This document shows positions 3,464 to 26,424 of a DNA stretch of 64,000 nucleotides, one piece after another. The translations under genes were made by a program, and so were the position numbers. The notes under the pieces were generated by a model. The model was not told where the DNA came from. It saw only the letters and a list, made by a program, of their open reading frames with translations, and searched no databases. The DNA comes from a plasmid, in the NCBI RefSeq assembly GCF_054482595.1, contig NZ_JBTHVH010000004.1. One strand, written 5' to 3'. Position 1 is the stretch's first letter, and each line of letters begins with the position of its first letter.

Positions 3464-3488
3464 ATTGATCACCGAAGAAGCGTATCCC

Positions 3489-6166: not shown

Positions 6167-6251
6167 AATTTTCCTCGTACGGCTGGTACGGCCAGCAGAA
6201 AACGTTGCTGTACAGAAAGGTGCTGCCCGGAAAGCAGCACCTTTCTGTCTG

Positions 6252-7531: not shown

Positions 7532-7553
7532 GACATCCCCTTAATTAATAAAA

Positions 7554-8611: not shown

Positions 8612-8641
8612 ATATGACAAAACCGGGGTTTTCACCCCGGT
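8612..8641 (-). terminator. Rho-independent terminator candidate downstream of terW
   Basis: Hairpin arms 'ACCGGGG'/'CCCCGGT' followed on the minus strand by a U-rich run; lies 15-40 bp after the terW stop. Confidence 0.5.
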
Positions 8642-8654
8642 CTGAGATTTAGCG

Positions 8655-9122
8655 TCAGGACTTTTTAGCGCTGTATTCTTTTATCAGTTCATCAACGGAG
8701 TGCAGAGCCAGCTTCTCTACCGCTTCACTTCGGGTCGAGCCACTCAGCGCAGCCAGACGGTCAATTTTTCTTAAAATCCGCATGCGTAGCGATAATGACA
8801 CGGCTGTTTTTTTATCCTTATCGAGTACGACCTTCCCTGTGGACTCACCGGTTTTCAGTTCAGCATTCTGTGCGAGCGCTTCATTCATCCGGCGAAGGGT
8901 CTTTTTATCCAGCTGGCCCGGATTAACGAGATGGTAGGAATGACCTGCCTTGCTGTATTTGATCTCCGCAGAATATGACTCGCGTAGCTCTTTGAGTGCC
9001 CGGGTTAATGTCGGCTCTGAGCATTCCAGACTGGTTATAATGTCGGCAGCGGAAACGGGCTTGCCGGTGCCCAGTAAGTTGGCAAGCTTAAAAATCCGGG
9101 CCTGTCTGGTATTTAATTGCAT
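8655..9122 (-). CDS. terW: TerW-like small regulatory/DNA-binding protein
   Basis: 155-aa ORF in the position and size of terW between the terY operon and the biosynthesis operon; the N-terminus looks helix-turn-helix-like. Identity is from recalled ter locus organisation. Confidence 0.65.
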   Translation of the reverse strand: MQLNTRQARIFKLANLLGTGKPVSAADIITSLECSEPTLTRALKELRESYSAEIKYSKAGHSYHLVNPGQLDKKTLRRMNEALAQNAELKTGESTGKVVLDKDKKTAVSLSLRMRILRKIDRLAALSGSTRSEAVEKLALHSVDELIKEYSAKKS

Positions 9123-9139
9123 CGTAAGATTTAGCCTGC

Positions 9140-10348
9140 TTAAAGGGTTAGTGGTTCAATAGGCTGAAAAATGAAGGTACTGCTCATCTTTCGAATAACC
9201 GGGTGATCGCCTAACGCTTCAACCGGATCAATGTGTTCTAAGCCTGCAAAATTTACTGACGACATCTGGCTGCGACTGCATTTGCAGGACAGGATATACT
9301 CATCCTCCAGATAGCCGGTCCGCTTACTGACCCGTTGCGTAAAGCCTGACACAATCACGTTGTCGAACGGTAGCGTATGTAAAACGATACCGACCAGGCG
9401 GAACAAGCAGCCATGGACGTGGCGGGCATAGTTTTCGCGTACGGCTTTTTGCGTCATGGCTTTTTCCGTCAGCTCCGTGCCCCGGGCATTAACGCCGTAA
9501 ATCTTATCAGGGAAATCTTCAATCTCAGCTAAATCAACATCCAGCAGGACTGCTGATAGCTCCGGCTTTACTTCAAATGCAACAAGCGTTTCACGCGGCC
9601 ATTCAGTTTCTGCCAGCACACCCGCCAGGTATGATTCGAAAAACGCGGCGTCTGTCCGGAACTGCTGCCGGGCATCTGCCTGAGCCGTGGCGAGCCGTTT
9701 TTCATGTTCTTCAGCCTCAAACTTCCAGTTTGCATACTGTTCGGCCCAGGCCGTCCGTTGTTGCTGGTACCGGTGCTGTCGAAGGGTATTCTCACGCTCC
9801 ACATCAATCAGCTCCTGCTGCCACCGGCGAAGATTTTCGGCGTGGCGCTCAGCTTTAGCTGATTCCGATTCAAACCATTTACCCAGAAAACTAATGCCTT
9901 CGCTCTCGGCAGGCTTTTCCGGCAATGCAAGATAGTCTGGCTTTTCTGGACGCACCGGTGCCGGAACCTGAAAAGGCGACGTTCTGTTATGCAGGTATAC
10001 TGCTTCCAGCTCTGCCCAGCTGATGCCTGTTTTAGGATCCGGCGTCAGCTCGTGAATATTACGGATTGCGGTCACCGCTGACATGAGATCAGCGGCTTCC
10101 TCCTCAAGCGCCTGTCTGAGCCCCGGGTCGGTAGCCGTCCGGTTCCCACCTCCGGAACGCGCGGCCCGATCAAGCCGGGTACGGTAACTCAGCCCGGTAC
10201 CGGGCAAGCCCAGATTGGCATAGGTCCCCCGGCTTCCAAAAGAAACGGAAGCACCTCTCGGCCCGACACTCAGGCTCGGTGCACCGTTACTCAGGTTGAG
10301 GCGAACACCAGGAATAATGTTGATCGACTTTCTGAATCTGAACCCCAT
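9140..10348 (-). CDS. DUF4236-like hypothetical protein
   Basis: N-terminus 'MGFRFRKSINIIPGVRLNLS' matches my recollection of the DUF4236 signature; the remainder is Gln/Glu-rich and coiled-coil-like; ATG at 10348. Confidence 0.55.
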   Translation of the reverse strand: MGFRFRKSINIIPGVRLNLSNGAPSLSVGPRGASVSFGSRGTYANLGLPGTGLSYRTRLDRAARSGGGNRTATDPGLRQALEEEAADLMSAVTAIRNIHELTPDPKTGISWAELEAVYLHNRTSPFQVPAPVRPEKPDYLALPEKPAESEGISFLGKWFESESAKAERHAENLRRWQQELIDVERENTLRQHRYQQQRTAWAEQYANWKFEAEEHEKRLATAQADARQQFRTDAAFFESYLAGVLAETEWPRETLVAFEVKPELSAVLLDVDLAEIEDFPDKIYGVNARGTELTEKAMTQKAVRENYARHVHGCLFRLVGIVLHTLPFDNVIVSGFTQRVSKRTGYLEDEYILSCKCSRSQMSSVNFAGLEHIDPVEALGDHPVIRKMSSTFIFQPIEPLTL

Positions 10349-10358
10349 TATGATTTCC

Positions 10359-11318
10359 TTAATGATGCTGGGTCACGGTAAGTAATCTGATTCCATCAGC
10401 GCTTTGCTCGTTCTGTAACCCATAAAAACGAGCTCTGTCCAGAATGCCAGCCGCCCAGCGGCGATGTGTGGCGGGTTCACACATTGCTCCCTGCGACTTA
10501 AACACGGCCTGGGTAGAGTTCAGGATCCGCAGAGCGTCAGAATGCTCACCCTGAGTGACCATCAGCGCGTTTTGAATGACCTCTATCTGACCCGGGTGAA
10601 TGGCCGTTTTCCCAACAAGCCCATGTGCCATATCAAGAGCCAGCTCTCTGGCCATTACGGCATGATCGTCAATATGCTCACATACGGGCGCGGTCAGGGC
10701 AAAATCACGCGGGCCGAAGACCGAAACGAGCATTTTGATGACGTAGCCCATCGGGCTGTCATACAGCGTCAGGTCCCGGGGACGGCGAAGCGACACAACG
10801 TTCATAAGATCGTTGCCGCCGATTCGAAGCGCAATAATGCGGTCGTGGCAGGGATGTTCCACCAGACGGGTGGCCAGCTCCCGCATCTGAACCACGTCAA
10901 AGACGTCTTCTGTTTCCAGCGTTGGCATCATGCACAGGTGAGTCCCGCCCATGATATCCCACCATTCAGCTAACGAACTGAGGGTAAATTTCGGCAACAC
11001 AAACCCGTCGACAGCGGAAAGATCATAATGCGCTTTTAACCATCTGCCCATTTCGGCATGCCGGGGGCGAATGAACACCAGAGGCCAGTCATTTTTACCC
11101 AGGCTATGCATGCTGTTACTGAGCTCGTGCAGCAGGTGCTCCAGATTTTTGAGGGCGACGGGGATGTCTGCTTCACTGACAGCATCCTCCAGGCAAATCA
11201 CCAGAGAGCGCAAACCCGGGATTTTCCCGTGCAGGACGGCATCAGCAATATCTTCCCGTGTTGCAGGCATGTATAGCGTGGCTCCCAGATTCCAGGGAGA
11301 AAGACGATTTTTCATCAA
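10359..11318 (-). CDS. HpcH/HpaI aldolase / citrate-lyase beta (CitE)-like protein
   Basis: 'VICLEDAV' and 'ALRIGGNDL' motifs typical of the CitE/HpcH TIM-barrel family; 319 aa. Confidence 0.7.
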   Translation of the reverse strand: MMKNRLSPWNLGATLYMPATREDIADAVLHGKIPGLRSLVICLEDAVSEADIPVALKNLEHLLHELSNSMHSLGKNDWPLVFIRPRHAEMGRWLKAHYDLSAVDGFVLPKFTLSSLAEWWDIMGGTHLCMMPTLETEDVFDVVQMRELATRLVEHPCHDRIIALRIGGNDLMNVVSLRRPRDLTLYDSPMGYVIKMLVSVFGPRDFALTAPVCEHIDDHAVMARELALDMAHGLVGKTAIHPGQIEVIQNALMVTQGEHSDALRILNSTQAVFKSQGAMCEPATHRRWAAGILDRARFYGLQNEQSADGIRLLTVTQHH

Positions 11319-12394
11319 AGTACCTTCTTGATAATGGTTACAGCCCGATACTGGCCGAGGGTTCCCCCCATTTCTGTAACAACTATTCCCTTTTCACGAG
11401 CAAGCCCTACAAGCAAGGCAACGTCCGGGTCGTCAATAGAACGCACAAATACATGGTCCGGTACCCGACGTAATACAGCCCGGGTTGCTTCAGCAATACC
11501 GGGTTTTATACGATTGACGCTGTCCACTTTAAATTCATCGGCCAGGAACGCGATAACGTCGCGACTTGTCTGCCATAAGATCCGGGCTGACTCCGTATTC
11601 CAGCTCAGGGGAGCGAGGGATGACGGGGTTAACTTCTTACGGAAATGAGCGACGGTATCGACAAGCATCCGGCTGCATTCGAATTCACTGAGATGCTCGC
11701 AAACCATGCACCCGTGTAATCCTTCAGAGGACCACACTGACCGGGAGATCAGGCCTGACACCGGCGCACCCATGATGCCAAAAGGAATGAGCCAGTCATC
11801 ATCACTGGCTGCAAGCCAGGAGCAGCCACAGGGATCGGCCAGGACAACCAGTCGCGGCTGCTCAGGATAGCCCGGGCGATCTTTCAGTGCGCGTACAAGC
11901 TCTCCGGTAATTGCGCCTTTACCTGTCCATCCGTCAACAAAGACAATACCGCTGGTACCATGCCGCTCTTCAATGACGTCGAGGGCTGCACCGTCAATTC
12001 CACGATCCCGGATAATGCTGATACCGTAATGCCATGAGGTTTTCCCCATGTCACGCAGGGCCTGGTGCAGCATAACGCCGAGCGGCACGCCAGCCCTGAC
12101 AAGACTGGCCAGTACAATGGGCTCATCACCAAAGCGTTTGGCCAGAGCAATAGCGAGCTGTGTGACTTCTTTTGCAAGTCTCTCTGCGCCCCGATCCAGC
12201 GCCCGGTGAAACAAATCAAGATGCCATTGTGTTGGCGCTGGCTCCTGACTGAGCATGTCCGAATAATGTTTCTTCCCTGACTGAATCAGCTCTTCTTTTT
12301 GCTCAACCGGCGTCATCTCAATGACAACCGGCTTTAGCAGAAATTCCACGTCACCGGGCTGGTATGAGCCGGTAAATGTGTCATGTGGCTGCAT
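11315..12394 (-). CDS. StiP-like protein (family annotated as cysteine protease StiP in ter-linked operons)
   Basis: About 360 aa Cys-containing ORF in the ter-linked operon position; ATG at 12394 with GGAG RBS preferred over the TTG at 12460. Family name is from recall, not motif proof. Confidence 0.5.
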   Translation of the reverse strand: MQPHDTFTGSYQPGDVEFLLKPVVIEMTPVEQKEELIQSGKKHYSDMLSQEPAPTQWHLDLFHRALDRGAERLAKEVTQLAIALAKRFGDEPIVLASLVRAGVPLGVMLHQALRDMGKTSWHYGISIIRDRGIDGAALDVIEERHGTSGIVFVDGWTGKGAITGELVRALKDRPGYPEQPRLVVLADPCGCSWLAASDDDWLIPFGIMGAPVSGLISRSVWSSEGLHGCMVCEHLSEFECSRMLVDTVAHFRKKLTPSSLAPLSWNTESARILWQTSRDVIAFLADEFKVDSVNRIKPGIAEATRAVLRRVPDHVFVRSIDDPDVALLVGLAREKGIVVTEMGGTLGQYRAVTIIKKVL

Positions 12395-12395
12395 T

Positions 12396-13169
12396 TTAAT
12401 TTTCTCCAAAAATTCGCTGTGAAATGGCATCTGCAAACTGACTCTGACGCGGGATGCCAAACCAGCTGCACAGTTTCATAAAACGATGATCGCTCAGGCT
12501 GTCGCCCAGGCCAATTACGGGGAAGACTCCGCGTTCAGCCCGAAGTTTTTCAAGCAGCCATCTGACGGCCAGCCCTTTCTCAACCGGGGTGGGAAGCCAG
12601 GCCACGTTATTACTGTTGCGGTGGATGTAGAAGCCCTCGGTCGGAAACACCGTTTCTATCTCATCTGCAATGGCATTGAGCTCGTCAAGGCGGGTGCTGT
12701 CGCGGTGCTTCATCACCATATAAACCGCCGTTTCACCGTATTCGAAGTTCAGCCTTGCCCAGGCATTGATCCCTTTTGCGTCCATCATTTCAGTGATCAG
12801 ACGCTGCATCGATGTCAGCTTTTCCTGGTAGGGAGCCAGCTGGCCAAGCATATGGGCCTTCCACTCCTCGTCGGGTTTGCCTTCAGGCGTGAGAATGACG
12901 GCCCCGTGCGTGGTGATTGCCCAGGAGTGGAAAGGGATCCGGACGCGGCTGATTTCTTCAGTTCCCCGGGCGGTAACAGGTATGAGTTCAGCCTGCTCCA
13001 GGAGCCAGTCCACCAACATGGACTGTTCTTCCGTCATAAAGCTTCGTGGATTCAGGGTGCGATCAACGGCACCGGTACGGAATGGCTCCAGGGCCAGCTC
13101 GTCCACCATTTTACGACGGGTCTGAAAGAGCGTGTCGTCAAGGTCGCTCAGAACAACGGGTTTATTCAT
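12396..13169 (-). CDS. HAD-superfamily hydrolase (phosphatase)
   Basis: HAD motif I 'VLSDLDDTLF' directly after the start 'MNKPVV' (ATG at 13169). The 112-codon N-extension in the track ORF is rejected because it overlaps the upstream PRTase gene. Confidence 0.75.
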   Translation of the reverse strand: MNKPVVLSDLDDTLFQTRRKMVDELALEPFRTGAVDRTLNPRSFMTEEQSMLVDWLLEQAELIPVTARGTEEISRVRIPFHSWAITTHGAVILTPEGKPDEEWKAHMLGQLAPYQEKLTSMQRLITEMMDAKGINAWARLNFEYGETAVYMVMKHRDSTRLDELNAIADEIETVFPTEGFYIHRNSNNVAWLPTPVEKGLAVRWLLEKLRAERGVFPVIGLGDSLSDHRFMKLCSWFGIPRQSQFADAISQRIFGEN

Positions 13170-14304
13170 AGGTAACAATCTCCACGACGGGCGCAACCTC
13201 AGCCAGGGCTTTAAGAAGCTGCGTGTCAATACTTTCTGCGGGTGTCTCAGTACACACAAGAATACGGTCAAACTGCTGGTGGGCGACGTTATAGACAAAA
13301 TTGGGGATGCCCAGCCCGTAGTTATCCGTAAAGGAAATGGCGGACTCAATGGCATAACCAACGGCGATAGGGGAGCGGGTGGTCGAACCATAAAGTGCCT
13401 GTGCTCCGGCAGCTTCGAGCCGTTCAGCAAGCAGGAACGGCTCCCAGACGAATTCCCCGGTCCCGAGAACCAGAATACGTTCCCCCTTGCGGACGGAGAC
13501 CTCATGGCCGAGATCGGCCGCAGGTGCGAGCATCCCCAGTCGACCCCAGGACTGTTTTCCCAGGATGTCCCATTCTCCGCGTGAAGTTACGTTGACTTTC
13601 GGCATGTCCGGGACAGGTGCATCAGGTAATGGGGTCCATCCCCACTGACCGCTTACAAGCGAAACCGAAGTGACGGGCAAGGATGTGCGCTCCGACAGGG
13701 CGTTGCTACTCCAGTCGGTAAGCGTAACGGCGATAACCTGTTCAATATGTTGAAGCTTGCCGGTATTACGCAGGGCAGAAAGCAGGTTAATAAAGGTATT
13801 ACCGGTGGTTGCCTCGTCATCAATCAAAACCAGCGTTCGTGCGTTGGTAACACGACGTCTTTTCTCTTCATCATCTGGCAGATAGATCAGATGATCGGTG
13901 GCGTGGCTGTGTTCTTCCTTGAACTCGCAAAGTAACGTGCCATCAACCGGGTGACGGGTAGAGGTCAGATAGACAGATTCACGATGCTGGTGGCGCACTT
14001 CATCAAACACACCGGCCCCTAGCCCAACGGCGGTTTCAGCCATACCGATAAAAAGTACGGGCCCTGCCAGCGTTGCGGGGAACTGGCTGGCAAGCTGTCT
14101 GTAGGCCTGCCGCATGACTGAGGGTGGCACGGGAATGTGCCTGCCGAGTACTTTGCTGACAAACAGAAAGGCGCGTTTCGGGTTACGTCTTTCAGCGATA
14201 TCAAACAGGTCATCGAGCGAAACATCACCCTGGTCGCGGGTTACCTGTATCGTACCGCATGAGAGGGTACGGCGATAAATCATATCTTCGAGGGTATCAG
14301 ACAT
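13162..14304 (-). CDS. Phosphoribosyltransferase-domain protein (PRTase_2/TRSP-like)
   Basis: PRPP-binding signature 'TLVLIDDEATTGNTF'; about 380 aa; ATG at 14304. Confidence 0.75.
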   Translation of the reverse strand: MSDTLEDMIYRRTLSCGTIQVTRDQGDVSLDDLFDIAERRNPKRAFLFVSKVLGRHIPVPPSVMRQAYRQLASQFPATLAGPVLFIGMAETAVGLGAGVFDEVRHQHRESVYLTSTRHPVDGTLLCEFKEEHSHATDHLIYLPDDEEKRRRVTNARTLVLIDDEATTGNTFINLLSALRNTGKLQHIEQVIAVTLTDWSSNALSERTSLPVTSVSLVSGQWGWTPLPDAPVPDMPKVNVTSRGEWDILGKQSWGRLGMLAPAADLGHEVSVRKGERILVLGTGEFVWEPFLLAERLEAAGAQALYGSTTRSPIAVGYAIESAISFTDNYGLGIPNFVYNVAHQQFDRILVCTETPAESIDTQLLKALAEVAPVVEIVTYE

Positions 14305-14313
14305 AAACACGCC

Positions 14314-15372
14314 TTAATTCAGATGGTTAGAGAGTGATTCCGGGTAAACGATGACATCTGTGATGGATCTCACTGCAACCGGAGAAAAGGTATTTCTGGC
14401 GCTCTGGATCACCGCATCTTCAGACATCAGACCGAGCTTAAAGGCAGCAAACAACCCGGGAAGGTTCACCCCGCTGTGAAGGGTATAACCCACCCCGCCT
14501 GACGGACGCATGTTGGTTTCAAGCAGCACCGGGTTGCCATTCACATCGTTTCGCGTCTGAACATTCACCAGCCCGTCGGCCTTCATAACCCGGGCGCAGT
14601 CACAAGCCAGTTCCCAGGCGCTTCCTTCGTTTACCAGATACTGGATAGCCCCTTCCTTACGGCGTCCCACGGCTGCGAGTATTTCGCCCTTATCCGCGAG
14701 GATATCGACGGAAAATTCCGGGCCTGGCAGGTACGGCATCAAAACAAGGGGTTTAAACGACTCAGAAGCCGATGCTGCTGCAATATACTGTTGCGGACTG
14801 ACCAGACGATGTTCGGGATGATTAAAGACGGCCATGGGCGAAGCACTGTCATCAAAGCGCCAGAATCCCATGCCATAGATACCCGTCACCGGCTTCACGC
14901 ATACCGGGCTGTCCGAGAACGGCGGGGCCGCGAGGTGCGTCTTTAATTCTGCCAGCGTATTCACCCGCCAGGACGGTACGACCGGGAGCCCGTTTTGCTC
15001 CATAAACTGAGCAAAAGTAACTTTTTCGTCAGCCAGAGTTAACCAGTCGACGCCTGTTGCACCGGTAGTAAGGGTGGCTCCGGTCGATTCAATGGCTGAA
15101 CGGTGTTCTTCAAACCACTGGCTGTTACGGCCAGTATGAATATGGTGGATGCCGTAGGTCTGAATGGTTTCCTGAATAAACTGAAGACGTTTTTGAGGAT
15201 CTTCAGGTTCAGTCAAAGAATAATCGGCAACGGAAAGAATTTCATGTCTTTCGTTACGGTGGGAGGCAAATACGGTAATAGCAAAATTATTTTTTTGTGC
15301 AAATGATTTTACCCCCTGAATAATATCTCGCTGGGAGGACAAACCTTCCATAAACCAAATTTTCTTGTTCAT
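14314..15372 (-). CDS. ATP-grasp family enzyme
   Basis: ATP-grasp motif 'LLETNMRPSGG'; first gene of the minus-strand operon, divergent from terZ. Confidence 0.75.
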   Translation of the reverse strand: MNKKIWFMEGLSSQRDIIQGVKSFAQKNNFAITVFASHRNERHEILSVADYSLTEPEDPQKRLQFIQETIQTYGIHHIHTGRNSQWFEEHRSAIESTGATLTTGATGVDWLTLADEKVTFAQFMEQNGLPVVPSWRVNTLAELKTHLAAPPFSDSPVCVKPVTGIYGMGFWRFDDSASPMAVFNHPEHRLVSPQQYIAAASASESFKPLVLMPYLPGPEFSVDILADKGEILAAVGRRKEGAIQYLVNEGSAWELACDCARVMKADGLVNVQTRNDVNGNPVLLETNMRPSGGVGYTLHSGVNLPGLFAAFKLGLMSEDAVIQSARNTFSPVAVRSITDVIVYPESLSNHLN

Positions 15373-15694
15373 TTTTTTTAATTATCCGGAACGCCATGCA
15401 AATTTATGATTGAGAAGTGAGTCTATGAGTGTCTACGCTACATGTCAATCATAATATGATTAATAACTTCAGTGGTTATGGAGTGCGTCAGTGTTTTTTT
15501 AGTACCTTATAACGTATTGATATTTAAATTAAAAATAGAAAAATGAACACCATGAAAAGGATTTATTTTTGTGTTTTTGAAGAAAACTACCAAAATTTCC
15601 CTTGTCAGAGAACTTCATCATGATATGATTTTCTTCGTCAGTTACTAAATATACCTTTGATTGTCTCGGTCATTACCATTTTAAGGAATAAAAC
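15373..15694. promoter_or_regulatory. AT-rich divergent control region between the biosynthesis operon and terZ
   Basis: 322-bp non-coding, strongly AT-rich gap between divergently transcribed operons; no specific promoter elements assigned. Confidence 0.4.
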
Positions 15695-16276
15695 ATGGTT
15701 TCATTAGTTAAGAACCAGACGGTATCACTCAGCAAAGAATCATCTGCATTAAGCCAGCTTCATTTCGGTCTCGGTTGGGATCCGGTTAAGAAAAAAGGTC
15801 TTCTTGGAGGATTGTTTGGAGGCAACGACTCAATCGATCTCGATGCTGGCTGCGTATTAATGGACAGCACCGGTAAAACAATTGACACCATCTGGTTCCG
15901 CAAACTGGAATCCACCTGCGGCGCTGTTGTGCACAGTGGCGATAACCTGACCGGTGAGGGTGACGGTGACGATGAGGTGATTAAGGTCAACCTCTCCCGA
16001 CTGCCTGCAAACGTTGAATACCTGGCGTTTACGGTAAACAGCTTCCGTGGTCAGTCGTTCAATGACGTCGAAAACGCGTTCTGCCGCGTTGTCGATCAAA
16101 CCGGCAAAGAGCTGGCTCGCTACAAGCTGACTGAGCAGGGCTCACATACCGGGATCGTTATTTCTTCGCTGCGCCGTAATAACGGCAACTGGGACTTTAC
16201 CGCCCTTGGCCATGCCTGTCGCGGCCGCACAATTGACGATATGCACTCCGATATCGTTTCAGCGGTTATTCGCTAA
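15695..16276 (+). CDS. terZ: Tellurite resistance protein TerZ (TerD family)
   Basis: '[15 protein letters not shown]' TerD motif; 193 aa; first gene of the Z-A-B-C-D-E order. Confidence 0.85.
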   Translation: MVSLVKNQTVSLSKESSALSQLHFGLGWDPVKKKGLLGGLFGGNDSIDLDAGCVLMDSTGKTIDTIWFRKLESTCGAVVHSGDNLTGEGDGDDEVIKVNLSRLPANVEYLAFTVNSFRGQSFNDVENAFCRVVDQTGKELARYKLTEQGSHTGIVISSLRRNNGNWDFTALGHACRGRTIDDMHSDIVSAVIR

Positions 16277-17433
16277 TGAACCTGACGCCGGGGGGCAATG
16301 CCCCCGTTCCAGCCCAGGAGTTGCGGGTCCGGATCACCTCGGGCGGCCAGGTGGATGCTTCGGCGTTTCGCCTGTATGCCGACGGGAAGGTGCAGGGTGA
16401 TGCGGACATGGTGTTTTATGGTCAGCCACGTAACGATGATGGTACCGTCAGCCTGGTCAGTGAAGGCCAGTACTCAACCTTTACTGTCGCGCTCAACCGG
16501 CTGAAACCTGATGTCCAGAAAATTGCGTTCACCGTGACCTGTGACGGTGGGCAGACGGTGTCCGGTCTTCGTAATCTTTCCATCGACGTGGAGCAAGGGG
16601 CTACCGGCCTGGTTAGCGGCAGTGTCGAACTGAGCGGCCGTCAGGAAGCAGCCTTAATTCTGGGTGAATTTTACCGTCGTAATAATGACTGGAAATTCCG
16701 CTTCGTTGCGCAGGGGTTCAACGGTGGACTTAAACCGCTGGCAGAGCATTTCGGCGTAAATATTGCCGACGAACCGGCTCCCGCAGCCCCGACTCCTCCG
16801 GTTGTAACCCCTCCGCCAGTTGAGACAAAAATCAGCCTGAGCAAGGTATCGCTGACAAAAGAGAAGCCTGCAATCAGCCTGACCAAACGGGATAACTTCG
16901 GTGAAATCCGGATCAACCTGAACTGGCACCGGGGCAGCGGCAAATCAGGCTTTGCAGGCATGTTCGGCTCCAAAGGAATCGACCTGGATCTGGGGGCCTT
17001 TGTTGAGCTTCAGGACGGGTATAAATCGGTCATTCAGGCGCTCGGTAATGCATTCGGTAATTATCGGGATGAACCGTATGTTCAGCTCAAGGGCGATGAC
17101 CGTACGGGTGATGTATCAGACGGCGAGTGGCTGCATATCAATGGACGTGAATGGAAGCATATCCGCGAAGTGCTGATTTACGCCTTTATTTATGAAGGTG
17201 TTCCCAGCTGGGACAAGACTGATGGTGTGGTCACCATTCATGTGCCGGATCAACCGCCCATTGAGACCCGCCTGACCGAAGGTGAAAACCGTCGCACATT
17301 GTGCGCCATTGCCAGACTCGTAAACGAAAACGGCGCAATTAAAGTCGAGCGAATTAACCAGTACTTCAAAGGCCAGGACGAAATGGACCGGGCATTTGGC
17401 TGGGGATTTCGCTGGAGCGCCGGTTCTAAATAA
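16276..17433 (+). CDS. terA: Tellurite resistance protein TerA
   Basis: 385 aa with two TerD-like halves; its start overlaps the terZ stop (TAATGA). Confidence 0.8.
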   Translation: MNLTPGGNAPVPAQELRVRITSGGQVDASAFRLYADGKVQGDADMVFYGQPRNDDGTVSLVSEGQYSTFTVALNRLKPDVQKIAFTVTCDGGQTVSGLRNLSIDVEQGATGLVSGSVELSGRQEAALILGEFYRRNNDWKFRFVAQGFNGGLKPLAEHFGVNIADEPAPAAPTPPVVTPPPVETKISLSKVSLTKEKPAISLTKRDNFGEIRINLNWHRGSGKSGFAGMFGSKGIDLDLGAFVELQDGYKSVIQALGNAFGNYRDEPYVQLKGDDRTGDVSDGEWLHINGREWKHIREVLIYAFIYEGVPSWDKTDGVVTIHVPDQPPIETRLTEGENRRTLCAIARLVNENGAIKVERINQYFKGQDEMDRAFGWGFRWSAGSK

Positions 17434-17455
17434 CACAGCAACAAAGGAAACAGGT

Positions 17456-17911
17456 ATGAGCTTTTTCGACAAAGTTAAAGGTGCCATTAACTCAGGCCGT
17501 GACGAACTGACCCGCCAGGTTGGCCGTTTCAAAAACAAAAAATTCATGCAGGGCACCGTTGCTGTATGTGCCCGTATTGCCGTATCGAGTGACGGCGTAA
17601 GTTCGGAAGAAAAGCAGAAAATGATGGGCTTTCTGCGCTCTTCAGAAGAGCTGAAGGTCTTCGATACCAATGAGGTGATTGAGTTCTTCAATAAACTGGT
17701 TTCAAGCTTCGATTTCGATGTTGAAATCGGCAAGGGCGAAACCATGAAATACATCCTGGCGCTGAAAGATCAGCCTGAGGCCGCTCAGCTGGCCTTACGT
17801 GTTGGTATTGCCGTTGCGAAAAGTGACGGTAACTTCGATCAGGACGAGAAACTGGCCTCCCGCGAGATCGCTATCGCGTTGGGCTTCGACCCGGCTGAAT
17901 TTGGCCTCTGA
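17456..17911 (+). CDS. terB: Tellurite resistance protein TerB
   Basis: 151 aa; ATG at 17456 with AAAGGAAACAGG RBS; the track N-extension is rejected. Confidence 0.8.
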   Translation: MSFFDKVKGAINSGRDELTRQVGRFKNKKFMQGTVAVCARIAVSSDGVSSEEKQKMMGFLRSSEELKVFDTNEVIEFFNKLVSSFDFDVEIGKGETMKYILALKDQPEAAQLALRVGIAVAKSDGNFDQDEKLASREIAIALGFDPAEFGL

Positions 17912-17933
17912 TCCACATCCCTAAGGGTAAAAT

Positions 17934-18974
17934 ATGGTTTCCACACACATCGGCTTCCCGACTGAAACGGTCATTGTTTTTATTGCGCTTTCAGTCGGTG
18001 CCATCTTTATTGACCTGTTTATGCACCGTGATGACAAGCCTATCTCGCTGAAGAGTGCGGCGCTCTGGTCCGTATTCTGGGTTGTGGTTGCGATGGCATT
18101 TGCCGGTTTCCTCTATATCCACCACGGTGCTGAGGTTGCCAGTCTGTTTGTCACGGGTTATGCGCTGGAGAAAGTGCTGTCGGTCGATAACCTGTTCGTC
18201 ATGATGGCCATCTTCTCCTGGTTCGCCGTTCCGGATCGTTATCGCCACCGTGTTCTCTACTGGGGGATCATTGGTGCCATTGTCTTCAGGGGCATCTTTG
18301 TCGCCATCGGTACGAGCCTGCTGAGTCTGGGGCCGTACGTTGAAGTTGTCTTCGCTATTATCGTTGCCTGGACAGCGGTCATGATGCTTAAAAGCGGTGA
18401 TGACGATGATGAAATTGAGGATTACTCCCAGCATCTGGCTTACCGCATGGTTAAACGCTTCTTCCCTATCTGGCCGAAGCTCAGAGGGCATGCCTTCCTG
18501 CTTAACCAGAAGGAAGTGGATGCTGAACTGGCGAAACCAGAAAACAGCGATGTCACCATTGGCCGTGGTAAAAAAGCGGCGCTGTATGCGACCCCGCTGT
18601 TCCTGTGTGTAGCTGTGGTTGAACTCTCGGACGTAATGTTCGCGTTTGACTCGGTACCGGCAATCATTGCCGTCAGTCGTGAACCGCTTATCGTCTATAG
18701 TGCCATGATGTTTGCTATCCTGGGCCTGCGTACTCTGTACTTTGTCCTTGAGGCACTGAAACAGTACCTGGTTCATCTGGAGAAGGCCGTTATCGTGCTG
18801 CTGTTCTTCATCGCGGCAAAACTCGGCCTGAATGCGACCGATCACATCTGGCATCATGGTTACAGCATCGCGGCAACAACCAGCCTGTATGTTGTACTGG
18901 GTGTACTGGCGCTGGGCATTCTCGCAAGCGTCATGTTCCCGGGCAAACCTGAATCTGAGGAAAAGGGGAGTTAA
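17934..18974 (+). CDS. terC: Tellurite resistance integral membrane protein TerC
   Basis: 346 aa with multiple hydrophobic segments, in the expected position. Confidence 0.85.
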   Translation: MVSTHIGFPTETVIVFIALSVGAIFIDLFMHRDDKPISLKSAALWSVFWVVVAMAFAGFLYIHHGAEVASLFVTGYALEKVLSVDNLFVMMAIFSWFAVPDRYRHRVLYWGIIGAIVFRGIFVAIGTSLLSLGPYVEVVFAIIVAWTAVMMLKSGDDDDEIEDYSQHLAYRMVKRFFPIWPKLRGHAFLLNQKEVDAELAKPENSDVTIGRGKKAALYATPLFLCVAVVELSDVMFAFDSVPAIIAVSREPLIVYSAMMFAILGLRTLYFVLEALKQYLVHLEKAVIVLLFFIAAKLGLNATDHIWHHGYSIAATTSLYVVLGVLALGILASVMFPGKPESEEKGS

Positions 18975-19022
18975 TCCCCTTAAGTGTTAACCTGAACAAT
19001 TACTAATCGAAGAGGTTATTTT

Positions 19023-19601
19023 ATGAGTGTTTCTCTTTCCAAAGGCGGGAACGTCTCCCTGAGTAAAGCAGCTCCGTCAATGAAAAACGTCCTGGTGGGC
19101 CTTGGCTGGGATGCGCGTTCAACAGACGGTCAGGACTTTGACCTGGATGCTTCAGCGTTCCTGCTGGCCTCAAACGGCAAAGTGCGCGGCGATTCAGATT
19201 TCATCTTCTATAACAACCTGACGTCATCTGACGGTTCCGTAACCCATACCGGTGATAACCGTACCGGTGAAGGTGATGGTGATGATGAATCGCTGAAAAT
19301 TAAACTGGACGCCGTCCCGTCTGATGTTGACAAGATCATCTTCGTTGTCACTATCCATGATGCTCAGGCTCGTCGCCAGAGCTTTGGTCAGGTATCCGGT
19401 GCGTTTATTCGCCTGGTCAATGACGATAACCAGACTGAAGTCGCTCGCTACGATCTGACCGAAGATGCGTCCACTGAGACTGCCATGCTGTTCGGCGAGC
19501 TGTATCGCCACAATGGTGAGTGGAAATTCCGCGCAGTGGGCCAGGGTTATGCTGGTGGTCTGGCATCTGTATGTGCTCAGTACGGCATTAACGCGTCCTG
19601 A
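19023..19601 (+). CDS. terD: Tellurite resistance protein TerD
   Basis: '[15 protein letters not shown]'; 192 aa. Confidence 0.85.
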
Positions 19602-19668
19602 TCGAAAAGTAACTTTTCACCCGGGGCTGTTAATGCAGCCCTCATTCAACTGTTTGCAGGAGCTAAAA

Positions 19669-20244
19669 ATGGCAGTTTCTCTCGTAAAAGGCGGCAACGT
19701 ATCTCTGACCAAAGAAGCACCAACCATGAATATCGCTATGGTTGGCCTCGGCTGGGATGCCCGTGTAACTGACGGTCAGGCTTTTGACCTGGACGCTTCC
19801 GTGTTCGCAGTAGGCGAAGACGGTAAAGTGCTGTCAGATGCGCATTTCATTTTCTTCAATAACAAAACCAGCCCTGATGGCGCGGTAGAGCACCAGGGCG
19901 ACAACCGTACCGGTGAAGGCGACGGTGACGATGAGCAGGTCAAAATCGATCTGACCAAAGTCTCAGCAGATATCAAAAAACTGGTGTTTGCCGTTACCAT
20001 CTATGATGCAGAAGCGCGTAAACAAAACTTCGGCATGGTGAGCAACAGCTTCATACGCGTTTACAACAACGACAACGGCACGGAAATTGCCCGTTTCGAT
20101 CTGTCTGAAGATGCCTCAACCGAAACCGCTATGGTCTTCGGTGAACTGTATCGTCATGGCGCTGAGTGGAAGTTTAAAGCTGTCGGTCAGGGCTTTGCCG
20201 GTGGCCTGGCGGCTCTTGCCTCCCAGCACGGCGTTAACATCTAA
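19669..20244 (+). CDS. terE: Tellurite resistance protein TerE
   Basis: '[15 protein letters not shown]'; ATG at 19669; the track N-extension is rejected. Confidence 0.85.
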
Positions 20245-20261
20245 AACAACGCTGAATCATA

Positions 20262-20287
20262 CCCCGGCAATGCCGGGGTTTTTTTTG
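20262..20287 (+). terminator. Rho-independent terminator after terE
   Basis: 'CCCCGGCAATGCCGGGG' hairpin followed by T9. Confidence 0.65.
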
Positions 20288-20672
20288 GTTGCGATCCGCT
20301 TTCAGGAGGGAGTAGTAGAAAGGGGACTGGAAATTTCAGAAAGCAGGTCATGTTAATTCAGACCTGAGCCTTTTAAAGGCAGGAAACGGATTTATCTCTG
20401 GTTGCTGGTTAAAGCCGGTATTCCGTGCCTTTTATCAACAGAATGCCCCTCTGATATATGTTACTTTTGCGGTTTATGAAGGAACGGGATCTGGAACATA
20501 AGATACCCGGTCAATCAAAATTCCAGTTCAACAGGTATAGAAACTTCAGCGTGATGAAATATGGTGTCACACCATATATACGCCTCACCAGAAATCCAGC
20601 GTCCTGAACTAAGCCTGGGGAACATATATAAGCGCTGCGCTTTAAAAATAATCAAAAATCAGGAGAGTTAAT

Positions 20673-21914
20673 GTGAATCTACAATCCGGACAAAACATAC
20701 CGCTTCAGCAATCTGCGATCAGGCTGAATCTTCAGTACCCTGCCAAATCCGGCTTTAAAGGCGAACCCGATACCTGCCTCTTCCTGCTTAATGCTCAGGG
20801 AAAGGTAACCGGCGATTCTGACTTTATCTTTTATAATAATCTGTCTTCTCCTGAAGGGGCAGTAAAGCTCGTTACCGGTTCTCAGCAGTCCAGCATTGAG
20901 ATAGCACTGGATCGTGTTCCGGCGAACGTCAGTAAGATTGCGATCACCGTTGTCATTGATGGTGAAGATACTATCAGTGGGCTCAGTTTATTGAGCATTC
21001 AGGCTCCTGGTATCGCTGATTTTCAGGCTGAGACTCAGGGCCGCAGTGAGAAAGCAATCATCCTGGGTGAAGTATATCGGCACAATGGCGCCTGGAAGCT
21101 TCGTGCGCTCGGGCAGGGTTTCAACGGTGGTCTTGAGCCTCTGGCCATTAGCTTTGGCGTTGATGTCGCACAGCCAGCTCCGCAGCCAGCAAAGCCTGCT
21201 CGTATCAGTCTGGAAAAGAAACTTGAAACCAGATCTCCGCGCCTCGTAAGCCTCGCTAAAAAAGCCTCGGTCAGTCTCACTAAAAATAAACTGGACACCC
21301 TTGAGGCAGCGGTTGCATTTGTACTTGACGCATCCGGCTCAATGAGTGGCCAGTTCAGTAAGGGCAACGTTCAGTCTGTGCTGGACCGCATCGCCGTTCT
21401 TGCCGCCCAGTTCGACGACGACGGTGAAATGGATGTCTGGGGATTTGGAGAGAAGCACAAGAAGTATCCAAACGTCACACTGGACAACCTGGACACATAT
21501 ATTCAGTCCATTCGCGGGTCTGGAAAGCGTTCAGCCTGGGAGAACCTGCCGGGACTTGGTGGGACAAACAATGAGCCCCCTGTGATGGAAGAAATTGTCG
21601 ACTACTTTAAGGACTCGAAAATCCCGGTATATGTTGTATTTATTACCGATGGCGGGATCAGCAAGACCCGGGCGATTAAAGATGCAATCCGGCGTTCTGC
21701 CAACTACCCCATCTTCTGGAAGTTTGTCGGCCTGGGTGGTTCAAGCTACGGTATCCTCAAAAATCTGGATGACTTTACTGACCGCCGGGTTGATAACACC
21801 CACTTCTTTGCCATGGATGATTTCGGTTCGATCAGCGATGAAAAGTTATATGATAATTTACTGGAAGAATTCAGACCGTGGATCGATGAAACAAAAAGGT
21901 TAGGCATCCTGTAA
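20673..21914 (+). CDS. terF: TerF: TerD-like N-terminal domain fused to a C-terminal vWA domain
   Basis: GTG start at 20673 with AGGAGAG RBS; C-terminal half has MIDAS '[12 protein letters not shown]'. Confidence 0.8.
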
Positions 21915-21942
21915 TACGCACAGTTTTCGCATGGTTAAAGGA

Positions 21943-21970
21943 GCTCTACAGCAGCTTAATACTGTAGAGC
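21943..21970 (+). terminator. Hairpin (terminator candidate) after terF
   Basis: 9-bp arms 'GCTCTACAG'/'CTGTAGAGC' with a 10-nt loop; downstream T-tract is weak. Confidence 0.4.
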
Positions 21971-22004
21971 CTTTGTTCACTGGAAATCGTACAGGGAGGA
22001 GCAT

Positions 22005-22136
22005 ATGGACCGCATCAAGTACCTGAAATGGATAGCTGAAGAATCACCAACTGATGATGAAATCGACAACTACGATAGTATCATTAGTCGGGGCGCAGAA
22101 AGGGCCGAGAAGGTTCAGTTGTCTTTAAGACGTTAA
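22005..22136 (+). CDS. Small hypothetical protein (43 aa)
   Basis: ATG preceded by a strong GGGAGGAG RBS; not in the ORF track (<60 aa); translation 'MDRIKYLKWIAEESPTDDEIDNYDSIISRGAERAEKVQLSLRR'. Confidence 0.3.
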   Translation: MDRIKYLKWIAEESPTDDEIDNYDSIISRGAERAEKVQLSLRR

Positions 22137-22476
22137 TATACGGGAGTTTAAATGTTCGCAGAAATCAAAGATAATTATTCGTTAGGTGGATAAAGAAAGG
22201 TTGCCATTACCAGCTTTCGACGAGTCGAAAATAAAAACCTTATTTATAGTGACAGGGAGTATGAGCTGACGCTTGCCAATGGAACAATAATTAAAAATGT
22301 ACTTAGAAAAGAAGAGTGGGAACTGTTAGAAAGCAATTCAATTAAGGTTATATTATAACGAAAATATATTTACAGTTTTGGATAGGTTTCAAACGAGTCC
22401 GGACATTTGTACCTGAAGTATCTGACATTACAGTTAAGTGACGATTATGTCAGCACGTCTGTTGCTGGCAGCTTAG

Positions 22477-22758
22477 CTATCGGTCTAAAAGCTGATCCAT
22501 TAATAATTCTTCGTAAAGCCCAGAGGTATCGGGCTTTATTACAATATCCGTTATTTCGAAGCGTTCAAGTACAAATTGCAGATATTCCGGAGTAACGTAG
22601 TAGGGATCAGGTTCAGCCAGATTAGTATAGAGTGGGTCTTCTGCTGCATTAATGTCATAATCAATGCACATATGAAACCACTGCAAAGGTGGATCCCAGC
22701 CTAACATCACCTGAACAATTCCCTGATTGCTTTTCACCTCATACCAGTGCTGGCTCAT
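22477..22758 (-). CDS. Hypothetical protein (93 aa)
   Basis: ORF with no recognisable motif; last of three co-oriented minus-strand small genes. Confidence 0.4.
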   Translation of the reverse strand: MSQHWYEVKSNQGIVQVMLGWDPPLQWFHMCIDYDINAAEDPLYTNLAEPDPYYVTPEYLQFVLERFEITDIVIKPDTSGLYEELLMDQLLDR

Positions 22759-22807
22759 ACTTAGTCCTTAAGAAAATTTGTCATCGGAAAATAACACGAA
22801 GCCTGCA

Positions 22808-22999
22808 TCATCGAGGCGCATAACCTTCTTCCCTTAACGCCTGTTGTAATTTATCAACTGCGCTTTTCATTACCCAGGCTTCTTCGTCACTCACAGCACA
22901 ACCACGTAGATCGCTCCAGCTCAGACGTTTAACAAATTGAGCAAGGGCCATAGTTTCGTTCTCATCAAGCCGCAAACTCAGTGTCTCAATACCTTCCAC
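22808..22999 (-). CDS. Hypothetical small protein (63 aa)
   Basis: ORF in a minus-strand run of small genes; no family recognised. Confidence 0.35.
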   Translation of the reverse strand: MEGIETLSLRLDENETMALAQFVKRLSWSDLRGCAVSDEEAWVMKSAVDKLQQALREEGYAPR

Positions 23000-23090
23000 T
23001 ATCTAACCTCCCTTATAATGAAAAATGGCGCTTTACTTCTGACCAGATGCCGAAGCCTTGAATGCAGCCGGAACTGTCGTTGTTTCTACT

Positions 23091-24797: not shown

Positions 24798-25094
24798 ATG
24801 ATCAATAATGATTACCCGTTAAACACGCTCAACCAGCTGCGTCCCTTGCTCATTGGTTTTCGCAAGGCGAATGGCCTGACGCAAAAAGACCTGTCCGAAA
24901 GGTTAGGCGTCACTCAACAGACATACTCACGTCTGGAAGCCAACCCTGCCAGTGCGAGCATTGAACGGCTATTCAAGGTGTTTTCCATCCTGGGCGTAAA
25001 AATCAGCTTCTCCTCGGCAACCACCTCTTCAGAGAGGAAGCAGACGGAAGAAATGCTTAAATCAAACTCACCTGCACGACAGGAGGATTGGTAA
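24798..25094 (+). CDS. hipB: HipB-like antitoxin (XRE-family HTH)
   Basis: HTH 'LTQKDLSERLGVTQQTYSRLE'; directly upstream of the hipA-like gene. Confidence 0.8.
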   Translation: MINNDYPLNTLNQLRPLLIGFRKANGLTQKDLSERLGVTQQTYSRLEANPASASIERLFKVFSILGVKISFSSATTSSERKQTEEMLKSNSPARQEDW

Positions 25095-25098
25095 CGAT

Positions 25099-26424
25099 AT
25101 GAGCCGGAAACAGCAACGTCTGGTAATTTGGATGAACGGCATCAAAGTCGGGTACTGGGAAAAAAGCAAAGGGGTAGACAGCTTAGAATACCTTCCTGAA
25201 TGGGTTGCTGACGAACAGGGAAGGCCGCTGTCATTGTCCCTTCCTTTTACTCCCGGGAACCAGGTCTGGCGTGGAAATGTGGTACGTGACTATTTTGATA
25301 ATTTACTGCCGGACAGCGAAGGCATACGCAGACGTCTGGCAATGCGTTACAAGGCCGATAGCCTGGAGCCTTTTGATCTGCTGACGGAGCTGGGAAAAGA
25401 CTGCGTGGGCGCGATACAGCTGCTTCATGACGGAGATGAACCCACTGATTTATATTCCGTGAAGTATCACCCGCTTACTGAATCAGAAATTGCGGCAACT
25501 TTGCGTAATACCACGGAGACATTGCTACCGGGCAGGCCAGAAGATAACGACGACTTACGTTTATCTATTGCCGGTGCTCAGGAGAAAACAGCCCTACTGT
25601 GGCATGAAGATCGGTGGTGTATGCCGGAGGGTAATACACCAACGACGCATATATTCAAGCTACCGCTCGGACTTGTGGGGAACATGAAAGCCGACATGAG
25701 CTCGTCGGTTGAAAATGAATGGCTCTGCTCGGTACTTCTCGGCCAGTACGGGCTCCCCGTGGCAAGAACGCAGATTGCTCACTTTGAAGATCAGAAAGCG
25801 CTGGTGGTAGAACGTTTTGACCGAAAATGGTCAGGAGACGGACAATGGATCATTCGTTTACCCCAGGAGGATATGTGTCAGGCCCTGGGCGTTTCGCCAT
25901 TACGAAAATATCAGGCGGACGGCGGGCCAGGTATATCGGAAATTATGGAGGTTCTGAGTAATTCAGACCGTGCTGAGCGTGACAAAGCGCAGTTTTTTAT
26001 GACGCAGATAATTTTCTGGATGATGGCCGCAACAGATGGCCACGCTAAAAATTTCAGTATTTCTATTGGGCCACAGGGACGTTATCACCTTACACCAAAC
26101 TATGATGTGTTGTCGGCATGGCCGGTGATCGGTCATGGGAACAATCAGATATCCTGGCAGAAGTGCAAATTGGCGATGGCCGTACGTGGCAGTAGCAACT
26201 ATTACCAGATATATCGAATACAACGACGCCACTGGATCAGGCATGGTGAGATAACCGGCCTGAGTAAACAGCAGACAGAGGCGATGATAGAGGAAATCAT
26301 CGCCAGAACCCCAGGTGTCATTGAACGTGTTAGCGGGCTTCTTCCGGACCAGTTCCCCCAGCAGCTTGCGGAAAGTATTTTTGATGGAATGAGGCAGCAA
26401 TGCAGGCGCCTGGCTGAGAAATGA
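25099..26424 (+). CDS. hipA: HipA-family toxin kinase
   Basis: 441 aa; N-terminal region aligns by eye with E. coli HipA ('VGYW..YLPEWVA..RPLSLSLP..DNLLPDS..FDLL..G.DCVGA'); AGGAGGA RBS. Confidence 0.85.
   Translation: MSRKQQRLVIWMNGIKVGYWEKSKGVDSLEYLPEWVADEQGRPLSLSLPFTPGNQVWRGNVVRDYFDNLLPDSEGIRRRLAMRYKADSLEPFDLLTELGKDCVGAIQLLHDGDEPTDLYSVKYHPLTESEIAATLRNTTETLLPGRPEDNDDLRLSIAGAQEKTALLWHEDRWCMPEGNTPTTHIFKLPLGLVGNMKADMSSSVENEWLCSVLLGQYGLPVARTQIAHFEDQKALVVERFDRKWSGDGQWIIRLPQEDMCQALGVSPLRKYQADGGPGISEIMEVLSNSDRAERDKAQFFMTQIIFWMMAATDGHAKNFSISIGPQGRYHLTPNYDVLSAWPVIGHGNNQISWQKCKLAMAVRGSSNYYQIYRIQRRHWIRHGEITGLSKQQTEAMIEEIIARTPGVIERVSGLLPDQFPQQLAESIFDGMRQQCRRLAEK

Follow-up and report, generated by a model that had tools for sequence, protein, structure and literature searches.

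Why should a single plasmid locus carry so many TerD-fold and vWA domains, and does TerF, in which the two are fused, tell us how the separately encoded proteins work together? We addressed this in a 64,000-nucleotide stretch of plasmid DNA (NZ_JBTHVH010000004.1), referred to here as the window. The RefSeq annotation of an identical plasmid confirmed the interval 15695-21914, which opens with the start codon (ATG) of terZ, closes with the stop codon of terF, and contains terZABCDE and terF. Together with its flanking genes, it is very probably the classical ter island known from R478-type (IncHI2) conjugative plasmids, made up of four parts and carrying TerD-fold copies that have diverged in function. 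The ter island is well known for tellurite resistance, phage inhibition, and colicin resistance.

Gene set and gene order are the same as in the R478 ter locus and related IncHI2 plasmids (terZABCDEF with terXYW) and in the Escherichia coli O157:H7 ter island, and an identical "terY-CYXYW-ZABCDEF" layout appears in a 2025 paper (PMC12054061). Many plasmids of E. coli, Klebsiella, and Salmonella match positions 8000-23000 of the window at 100% nucleotide identity; many IncHI2-type plasmids are among them over these 15 kb, with no detectable difference, and the locus is a member of this group. At least 80% of the segment is covered by 1241 PLSDB records, and 1041 of 5426 complete E. coli genomes contain it. 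Multidrug resistance and virulence plasmids very often carry the ter island (∼1200 PLSDB plasmids). Loci identical or nearly identical to this one have known tellurite, phage, and colicin phenotypes (Whelan 1995, cited in PMC12054061). The RefSeq annotation of the identical plasmid names terW, terC, terD, TerD-family, vWA, and TerY-C genes. NCBIfam returned only subthreshold, uninformative matches. The TerD/vWA locus spans ∼1964-21914, with the following features:

1964-3463, minus strand: Ser/Thr protein kinase-like gene, annotated as an HhH-domain or InaA-family kinase (Pfam Pkinase, E 5.9e-10)
3489-5126, minus strand: PP2C-family Ser/Thr phosphatase (Pfam PP2C_2, E 1.3e-46)
5126-6166, minus strand: TerY-C, with a vWA domain at aa 6-160 (MIDAS DCSES; VWA, E 8.9e-14) and a C-terminal TerY_C metal-binding domain (E 3.2e-53)
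6252-6890, minus strand: TerY1, TerY-type vWA, MIDAS DTSGS (Pfam VWA, E 2.5e-12)
6890-7531, minus strand: TerX, TerD family, intact motif GDNRTGAGDGDDE at aa 100-112 (Pfam TerD, E 1.3e-52)
7554-8192, minus strand: TerY2, TerY-type vWA, MIDAS DTSGS (Pfam VWA, E 3e-14)
8655-9122, minus strand: terW, HTH regulator of the ter operon (RefSeq annotation; weak Pfam HTH_11 match)
9140-15372, minus strand: six-gene module of DUF4236 protein, TIM-barrel C-C lyase, StiP+PELOTA, HAD-like phosphatase, PRTase+TRSP, and Ter-type ATP-grasp (Pfam matches, annotation)
15695-16276, plus strand: terZ, TerD family, intact motif at aa 82-94 (Pfam TerD, E 2.4e-46)
16276-16770, plus strand: terA N-terminal TerD-fold domain (TerA-N), aa 1-165, Ca-binding loop deleted (Pfam TerD at aa 24-159, E 3.8e-33)
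16828-17430, plus strand: terA C-terminal divergent TerD-fold domain (TerA-C), aa 185-385, DLD and GDDRTG kept, GDGDD lost
17456-17911, plus strand: terB (Pfam TerB, E 1.5e-20)
17934-18974, plus strand: terC, integral membrane protein (Pfam TerC, E 2.2e-42)
19023-19601, plus strand: terD, archetypal Ca-binding TerD protein, motif at aa 77-89 (Pfam TerD, E 3.8e-88)
19669-20244, plus strand: terE, nearest paralog of terD, motif from aa 77
20261-20289, plus strand: intrinsic terminator-like hairpin 17 nt past the terE stop, with a T7 run after an 8-bp stem that has 7 GC pairs
20673-21167, plus strand: terF N-terminal TerD-fold domain (TerF-N), aa 1-165, TerA-N type, Ca-binding loop deleted (Pfam TerD, E 4e-35)
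21306-21908, plus strand: terF C-terminal vWA domain, aa 212-412, copine-like vWA-TerF family (Pfam PF10138, E 2.6e-69)

The terZABCDE operon would close at the terminator-like hairpin, with terF placed separately. We regard terF as a probable separate unit because of the hairpin and its T7 run, the 428 nt that separate terF from the terE stop, the GTG start with its own AGGAG Shine-Dalgarno sequence, and a match end at the hairpin itself: in two Klebsiella plasmids, those of the ∼78% identity band among the matches listed, the match stops at query position 4590 (window position 20284), the end of the terminator stem.

Six TerD-fold proteins with seven such domains lie in the locus (TerZ, TerD, TerE, TerX, the TerF N-terminal domain, and both halves of TerA), so that the five paralogs counted in the preliminary description were an underestimate; a scan of the window in all six frames found exactly six TerD-type and four vWA open reading frames. 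All six proteins score above the PF02342 gathering threshold of 25.3 bits (TerZ, 158; TerA N-half, 115; TerD, 294; TerE, 287; TerF N-domain, 121; TerX, 178). That description had also assigned both families to one locus at 15695-21914, which holds for one vWA and for five proteins with TerD domains, whereas TerX and the three TerY-type vWAs lie outside it, at 5126-8192 on the minus strand. Its view of the paralogs as diverged genes was borne out, with TerD and TerE sharing 66% protein identity and all other pairs 23 to 48%. At the DNA level, terD and terE are 67% identical, and the other pairs match only in patches of 38 to 130 nt around the conserved motifs.

The motif GDN(R/L)TG(E/A)GDGDDE had been said to persist in four of these proteins, and we found its exact 13 residues in TerZ (from aa 82), TerD and TerE (both from aa 77), and TerX (from aa 100). 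We defined the Ca2+-binding TerD subclass by this intact loop together with a DLD triad, following the Ca1 and Ca2 site residues of Pan et al. 2011 as given in PMC8779313. All of these positions are retained in TerZ, TerD, TerE, and TerX, the predicted Ca2+ binders. TerA-N and TerF-N fall outside the subclass through a seven-residue loop deletion; the remaining loop positions read SEGQYS and TGSQQS, and the triads read QVD and EPD, respectively. Compared with Klebsiella pneumoniae TerD (PDB 2kxt/2kxv) and the Streptomyces TerD homologues (3ibz and 2qz7), both domains lack the seven Ca-loop residues and the acidic ligands, and we infer from these sequences that Ca binding has been lost in both.

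TerA does consist of two TerD-like halves, as had been described. The N-half exceeds the Pfam threshold; membership of the C-half was judged by that threshold or, failing it, by profile-profile homology together with a TerD β-sandwich fold. The latter comparisons were needed because a TerA-C family profile searched against PDB sequences gave TerD 2kxt as its top match with a nonsignificant E value of 0.086, and they place the C-half in the family. Its motif is degenerate, with GDDRTGDVSDGE replacing the intact TerD loop, DVS-DGE in the second half, and His for Asp at TerD position 30. DLD and GDDRTG are nevertheless kept, both being conserved across 30 diverse TerA-C homologues, and to judge by these residues one Ca site may survive.

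The four vWA domains previously noted are those of TerY1, TerY2, and TerY-C (PF00092, E 2.5e-12 to 3e-14) and of TerF (PF10138), and the MIDAS DxSxS motif is present in all four. The TerY-type domains share 38 to 48% mutual identity (48% for TerY1/TerY2), and the TerY proteins match each other in BLASTP at E values of 1e-43 to 1e-65. Adjacent vWA/TerY_C, PP2C, and kinase genes on one strand, at 1964-8192, make up a TerY-P triad, which Anantharaman, Iyer, and Aravind reportedly described in 2012 as a TerY vWA, a PP2C phosphatase, and a Ser/Thr kinase. All three components are adjacent here, along with the TerY_C protein, and a comparison by Pfam family names revealed no difference from that triad. 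TerY2, TerX, TerY1, TerY-C, the PP2C phosphatase, and the kinase would together form a TerY signaling operon.

TerF is indeed a TerD-vWA fusion, with PF02342 at aa 1-161 (E 4e-35) and PF10138 at aa 212-412 (E 2.6e-69; 233.8 bits against a cutoff of 29.4). Its MIDAS reads DASGS (aa 219-223), and the vWA also matches Pfam Copine (E 5.5e-9) and the PDB copine BONZAI1 (E 0.014), sharing the MIDAS DxSxS motif with the PF10138/copine vWAs. Unlike the eukaryotic copines, TerF is bacterial and carries a TerD-fold N-domain, instead of C2 domains, fused to its vWA. Among the best 120 TerF homologues, several of which are named TerF by NCBI, PF02342 and PF10138 occur together in 120 of 120. A vWA protein TerF is listed as a Ter system component in PMC7824862, which cites Anantharaman et al. 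2012. Our literature search for TerF with von Willebrand and tellurite found no paper. The many diverged TerD and vWA paralogs and the TerD-vWA fusion are already catalogued in Pfam and published work and are ordinary, textbook features that leave current views unchanged.

Our own analysis covers gene content, domain folds, motifs, divergence, and matches to known plasmids; for phenotypes, TerD Ca2+ binding, and genetics, we rely on the literature. PMC12054061, citing Whelan 1995, states that insertions in terZ, terC, or terD abolish tellurite, phage, and colicin resistance, that terA insertions reduce phage inhibition alone, and that terE and terF insertions have no effect in the classical assays. 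The minimal resistance unit is terCD, which is toxic, with growth rescued by terA or terZ, and TerE is weaker than TerD (PMC8779313). A regulatory role of terW is cited in PMC12054061.

In the explanation we favor, the seven TerD-fold domains would derive from old duplications and would since have diverged in function. TerD, TerE, TerZ, and TerX, with both Ca2+ sites kept, would be Ca2+-binding, possibly ligand-sensing β-sandwich subunits. TerD and the membrane protein TerC would form the core unit with TerE as a weaker backup, and TerZ or TerA would relieve the toxicity of TerC and TerD expressed alone. We infer a complex in which the loop-less TerA-N and TerF-N most likely serve for scaffolding or docking and present a second head: the degenerate TerD domain of TerA or the MIDAS vWA domain of TerF. 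Metal-dependent contacts between proteins are the most likely role of the four vWA domains, those of TerY type in a phosphorylation-controlled signaling module and that of TerF at or under the membrane complex. The six-gene module without its DUF4236 protein is a proposed biosynthetic module divergent from terZ, whose ATP-grasp, PRTase, HAD, StiP-PELOTA, and C-C lyase proteins would make a nucleoside-like metabolite.

Such a metabolite also features in an alternative that we consider possible, if somewhat improbable: that the island is mainly an anti-phage or anti-invader system, in which a nucleoside-like signal is made upon attack, the TerD-fold proteins are its receptors rather than Ca2+ sensors, and TerC, TerF, and TelA-like proteins alter the envelope. 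This alternative is the Aravind laboratory model, with PRTase and HAD proteins in signal biosynthesis, TerB and TerD in ligand binding, and TerC, TelA, and the TerF vWA at the membrane (PMC7824862), and specialized nucleotide derivatives may be recognized by TerD (PMC7159879). The PRTase, ATP-grasp, and HAD genes divergently adjoin terZ here, the phage inhibition phenotype maps to terZ, terC, terD, and terA, and a Klebsiella terC deletion mutant is more sensitive to phage (PMC12054061). However, TerD Ca2+ binding has been measured by experiment, unlike nucleotide binding; induction by and resistance to Zn(II)/Mn(II) point to metal homeostasis, and the phage effects reported in 2025 were modest, concerning plaque size and late growth (PMC12054061). 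PADLOC defense models matched none of ten Ter, TerY, and PP2C proteins, and our literature search for terZABCDE with anti-phage returned no paper.

TerF could also be read as a Rosetta-stone fusion, implying that the separately encoded TerX and TerY bind each other directly. The joining of a TerD fold and a vWA fold in one protein invites this, as do the retention of MIDAS in all four vWAs and the location of terX, flanked on both sides by TerY genes whose coding ends overlap it or adjoin it (position 6890 is common to terX and TerY1). Against it, the TerF vWA is of the PF10138/copine-like type and gives only nonsignificant BLASTP matches to TerY1, TerY2, and TerY-C (E 0.05 to 7), while TerF-N, unlike TerX, has no Ca loop and is 45% identical to TerA-N versus 24% to TerX. 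Different subfamilies are therefore fused in TerF, the logic of fusion transfers poorly at such distances, and we consider the Rosetta-stone reading unlikely. The earlier statement that TerF physically links the two families stands at the fold or superfamily level only, since its vWA is copine-like PF10138 rather than TerY type and its N-domain is of the loop-less TerA-N type rather than TerX-like.

The N-module of TerF is 44% identical to residues 1-204 of TerA (E 7e-44). Three elements make up the shared stretch: the TerD domain without its Ca loop, a linker rich in Pro, and the strand element "ISLxK...SLTK", which is conserved and, among TerF homologues, invariant. One speculative idea, which we put forward with considerable doubt, is that TerA and TerF are alternative adaptor subunits built on this 204-residue module and docking to the same TerC/TerD partner, with a degenerate TerD or a MIDAS vWA as the head. 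TerF would then descend from a TerA-like two-domain ancestor, the vWA replacing the second TerD body, and the loop-less domains would be Ca-insensitive regulators of TerCD toxicity.

It is very improbable that the paralogs are redundant dosage copies of a single Ca2+-binding protein, an explanation largely contradicted by published genetics. TerE, 66% identical to TerD, partly substitutes for it (PMC8779313), and terE insertions are silent according to PMC12054061, but the same paper gives a phenotype for terZ and for terD insertions despite the other copies. Relief of toxicity is a separate role of TerA and TerZ (PMC8779313), and Ca-site residues are lost or degraded in three of the seven domains. 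That the TerD/vWA repeats are an assembly or collapse artifact or very recent tandem duplicates, an idea prompted only by so many same-family genes sitting within 20 kb, is ruled out for practical purposes by protein identities of 23 to 66%, by DNA identity of at most 67%, and by the many plasmids, sequenced independently, in which the arrangement recurs with 100% identity.

The Ca-site status of each TerD-fold domain and the TerA-like N-module of TerF should help in designing interaction and complementation experiments. An Rfam search of the whole window matched no RNA family, riboswitches included, within the ter locus; its sole match is an integron attI/AAC_AAD leader at 41428-41503.

The interval 15695-21914 is filled by seven co-directional genes (193, 385, 151, 346, 192, 191, and 413 aa in the ORF listing), which the RefSeq record of an identical plasmid, pHNTH9F11-1, annotates as TerD family (terZ), TerD family (terA), TerB family, TerC, TerD, TerD family (terE), and vWA domain-containing protein (terF). 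Upstream of terZ lie the following:

minus strand, six-gene module of ATP-grasp, PRTase, HAD-like, StiP-PELOTA, C-C lyase, and DUF4236 genes
minus strand, terW (RefSeq annotation)
minus strand, operon of vWA, TerD-family, vWA, TerY-C, PP2C, and kinase genes

The region is a classical ter island, and the identical layout, terY-CYXYW-ZABCDEF, is found in a 2025 paper (PMC12054061). Numerous large conjugative plasmids from E. coli, E. fergusonii, and Klebsiella carry positions 8000-23000 at 100% identity over the full 15 kb; at least 80% of this segment is covered in 1241 PLSDB records, and 1041 of 5426 complete E. coli genomes have it, at 708 chromosomal and 376 plasmid places. As a plasmid module the whole locus has been described before and is extremely common, and our additions to it are modest: structural confirmation of the C-terminal half of TerA as a TerD fold, a predicted split of the TerD-fold domains into three classes by calcium-site status, a 204-residue module common to TerA and TerF, and a putative terminator between terF and terZABCDE. 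The DUF4236 protein (9140-10348, minus strand, 402 aa), whose gene separates terW from the C-C lyase gene, matches a family through its first 56 residues alone. The longest ORFs of terB (TTG 17396), terE (ATG 19465), and the TerY-type vWA gene TerY2 (GTG 8273) overshoot the RefSeq starts (17456, 19669, and 8192, respectively) upstream, and a naive ORF call adds 20 to 68 residues.

The Pfam TerD domain is present in six proteins, TerZ, TerA, TerD, TerE, TerX (6890-7531, minus strand), and TerF (residues 1-161), and these carry seven TerD-fold domains; a six-frame scan of the 64-kb window found no other TerD or vWA ORF. The preliminary description had counted five TerD-fold paralogs, a miscount. 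It was right that TerZ, TerD, TerE, and the terX-like gene retain the calcium-binding motif GDN(R/L)TG(E/A)GDGDDE, as all four match its 13 residues exactly (in TerX, GDNRTGAGDGDDE).

The Pfam TerD match in TerA is confined to residues 24-159. The C-terminal half (TerA-C) alone scored 15.6 bits, under the 25.3 cut-off, and was colinear with nearly the entire profile. TerA-C was searched against 1.8 billion representative proteins; most of the 655 relatives obtained were TerA-like, two-domain proteins about 400 aa long, and a profile was built from an alignment of 30 diverse ones. Compared with a profile of TerD, TerE, TerZ, and TerX, it gave a 96.6% probability (E 7e-10, 172 columns), and among all 516 six-frame window ORFs it matched TerZ (1.7e-8), TerX (2.4e-8), and TerD (1.3e-4) and no others. 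The earlier reading of TerA as two TerD-like halves is therefore correct, and a CDD-based description also gives two such domains (PMC8779313).

When the Ca1 and Ca2 ligand residues of Klebsiella TerD (Pan 2011, as given in PMC8779313) were located in the alignment, the seven domains sorted into three predicted classes:

intact: TerZ, TerD, TerE, and TerX, with all listed Ca-site positions kept
loop-deleted: the N-terminal domains of TerA (TerA-N) and TerF (TerF-N), with GDNRTGE removed by a seven-residue deletion and the acidic run changed to SEGQYS and TGSQQS
degenerate: TerA-C, with GDGDD lost and DLD and GDDRTG kept

The DLD and GDDRTG elements of TerA-C are conserved across distant homologues.

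At the protein level TerD and TerE are 66% identical and all other pairs 23 to 48%. At the DNA level terD and terE are 67% identical, and other pairs align only over patches of 38 to 130 nt at conserved motifs. The paralogs are thus diverged, as had been claimed, and since no near-identical pair exists, an assembly artefact is ruled out, the top DNA identity being that of terD/terE.

The vWA domains of the locus are as follows:

7554-8192, TerY2, vWA
6252-6890, TerY1, vWA
5126-6166, TerY-C protein, vWA in its N-terminal part
TerF, vWA in its C-terminal part

All four carry the DxSxS MIDAS motif. The preliminary description had placed four vWA domains at 15695-21914; the number stands, but only one of the four lies inside and TerX too is outside, so its title fits the ∼20-kb locus and not that interval.

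TerF is, as proposed, a TerD-vWA fusion, with its C terminus matching PF10138 ("vWA found in TerF C terminus") at 233.8 bits. This architecture is not new: each of the 120 top-ranking TerF homologues from a database of 5.8 billion proteins has both PF02342 and PF10138, and several of them bear the name TerF. TerA and TerF are mutual closest relatives, with 44% identity over residues 1-204 (E 7e-44; terA 16276-16887, terF 20673-21284). The shared module takes in a Pro-rich linker and then a strand element, "VSLxK...SLTK" or "ISLxK...SLTK", beyond which TerA continues into a TerD fold and TerF into the vWA domain. TerF homologues down to 68% identity all keep the strand element unchanged, but their linkers vary. 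This module suggests a common two-module ancestor.

The TerF vWA resembles those of copines (Pfam Copine, E 5.5e-9; BONZAI1 in the PDB, E 0.014). Pairwise comparison with the TerY-type vWAs, three domains that share 38 to 48% identity with one another, gave no significant similarity. Together with the TerA-N-like N-terminal domain, this identifies TerF, judged from sequence, as a join of a TerA-N-type domain and a copine-type vWA, not of a TerX-type domain and a TerY-type vWA. The argument that TerF links TerD and vWA families found as separate genes in the signalling operon, the main inference of a largely correct interpretation, consequently holds only at the superfamily level. The fusion supports a general functional coupling of TerD and vWA folds in Ter systems and is weak evidence for direct TerX-TerY contact.

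A strong terminator-like hairpin (20261-20279; 8-bp stem, 7 GC pairs) lies 17 nt 3' of the terE stop and is followed by a T7 run, the two spanning 20261-20289. terF starts 428 nt past the terE stop (non-coding gap 20245-20672) and 394 nt past the hairpin stem; its start codon is GTG, and it has an AGGAG Shine-Dalgarno sequence of its own. By megablast, the match to the two Klebsiella ter plasmids listed from the ∼78%-identity band (1072 records lie at 60 to 80%) ends at query position 4590 (window ∼20284), the end of the terminator stem. These features argue that terF probably forms its own unit, added on after terZABCDE, which fits the reported dispensability of terF, like that of terE, for classical phenotypes (PMC12054061; PMC8123226). 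The 322-nt intergenic region from which the ATP-grasp gene and terZ diverge (15373-15694) is likely the control region bound by TerW, and it holds promoter-like sites, as consensus matches only, on both strands:

15602-15629, plus strand, TTGTCA-16-TATGAT, extended TG
15448-15420, minus strand, TTGACA-17-TAGACT

TerD binds Ca2+ at two sites, and the minimal tellurite-resistance unit is terC plus terD, which is toxic alone; growth is restored by terA or terZ, and TerE is a weaker TerD (PMC8779313). Tellurite, phage, and colicin resistance are all lost on insertion into terZ, terC, or terD, while insertions in terA reduce phage inhibition alone (Whelan 1995, as summarised in PMC12054061). Klebsiella terC also adds to Zn/Mn resistance, and the operon is induced by Zn(II) (PMC12054061). 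In the Aravind-lab model, the PRTase and HAD module makes a nucleoside-like signal, TerB and TerD bind ligand, and TerC, TelA, and the TerF vWA protein act at the membrane (PMC7824862; PMC7159879). PADLOC defence models matched no Ter protein. We infer that the paralogs have functionally diverged: TerD, TerE, TerZ, and TerX would be Ca-competent sensor subunits, and TerA-N and TerF-N may be scaffold domains without the Ca loop that bear different heads. The MIDAS vWA domains could make metal-dependent protein contacts, with the kinase and PP2C presumably controlling the TerY set.

Between terF and a type II toxin-antitoxin pair, RefSeq annotates small hypothetical genes (43 to 130 aa) on the identical plasmid at 22005-24200, where GC is lower, about 45%. 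The pair, ∼3 kb downstream of terF (24798-26424, plus strand), comprises an HTH HipB-like protein (98 aa) and a kinase toxin of the HipA family (441 aa). An Rfam AAC_AAD_leader/attI match (41428-41503, minus strand, 74 bits) indicates a class 1 integron within a mosaic resistance region (about 30000-54000) that holds several 240-aa ORFs, as would be expected of IS26 transposase, along with Tn3-family elements, blaTEM-1, and aph(4)-Ia. No more than a single plasmid record spans 80% or more of this region in one place, so the mosaic arrangement is rare.
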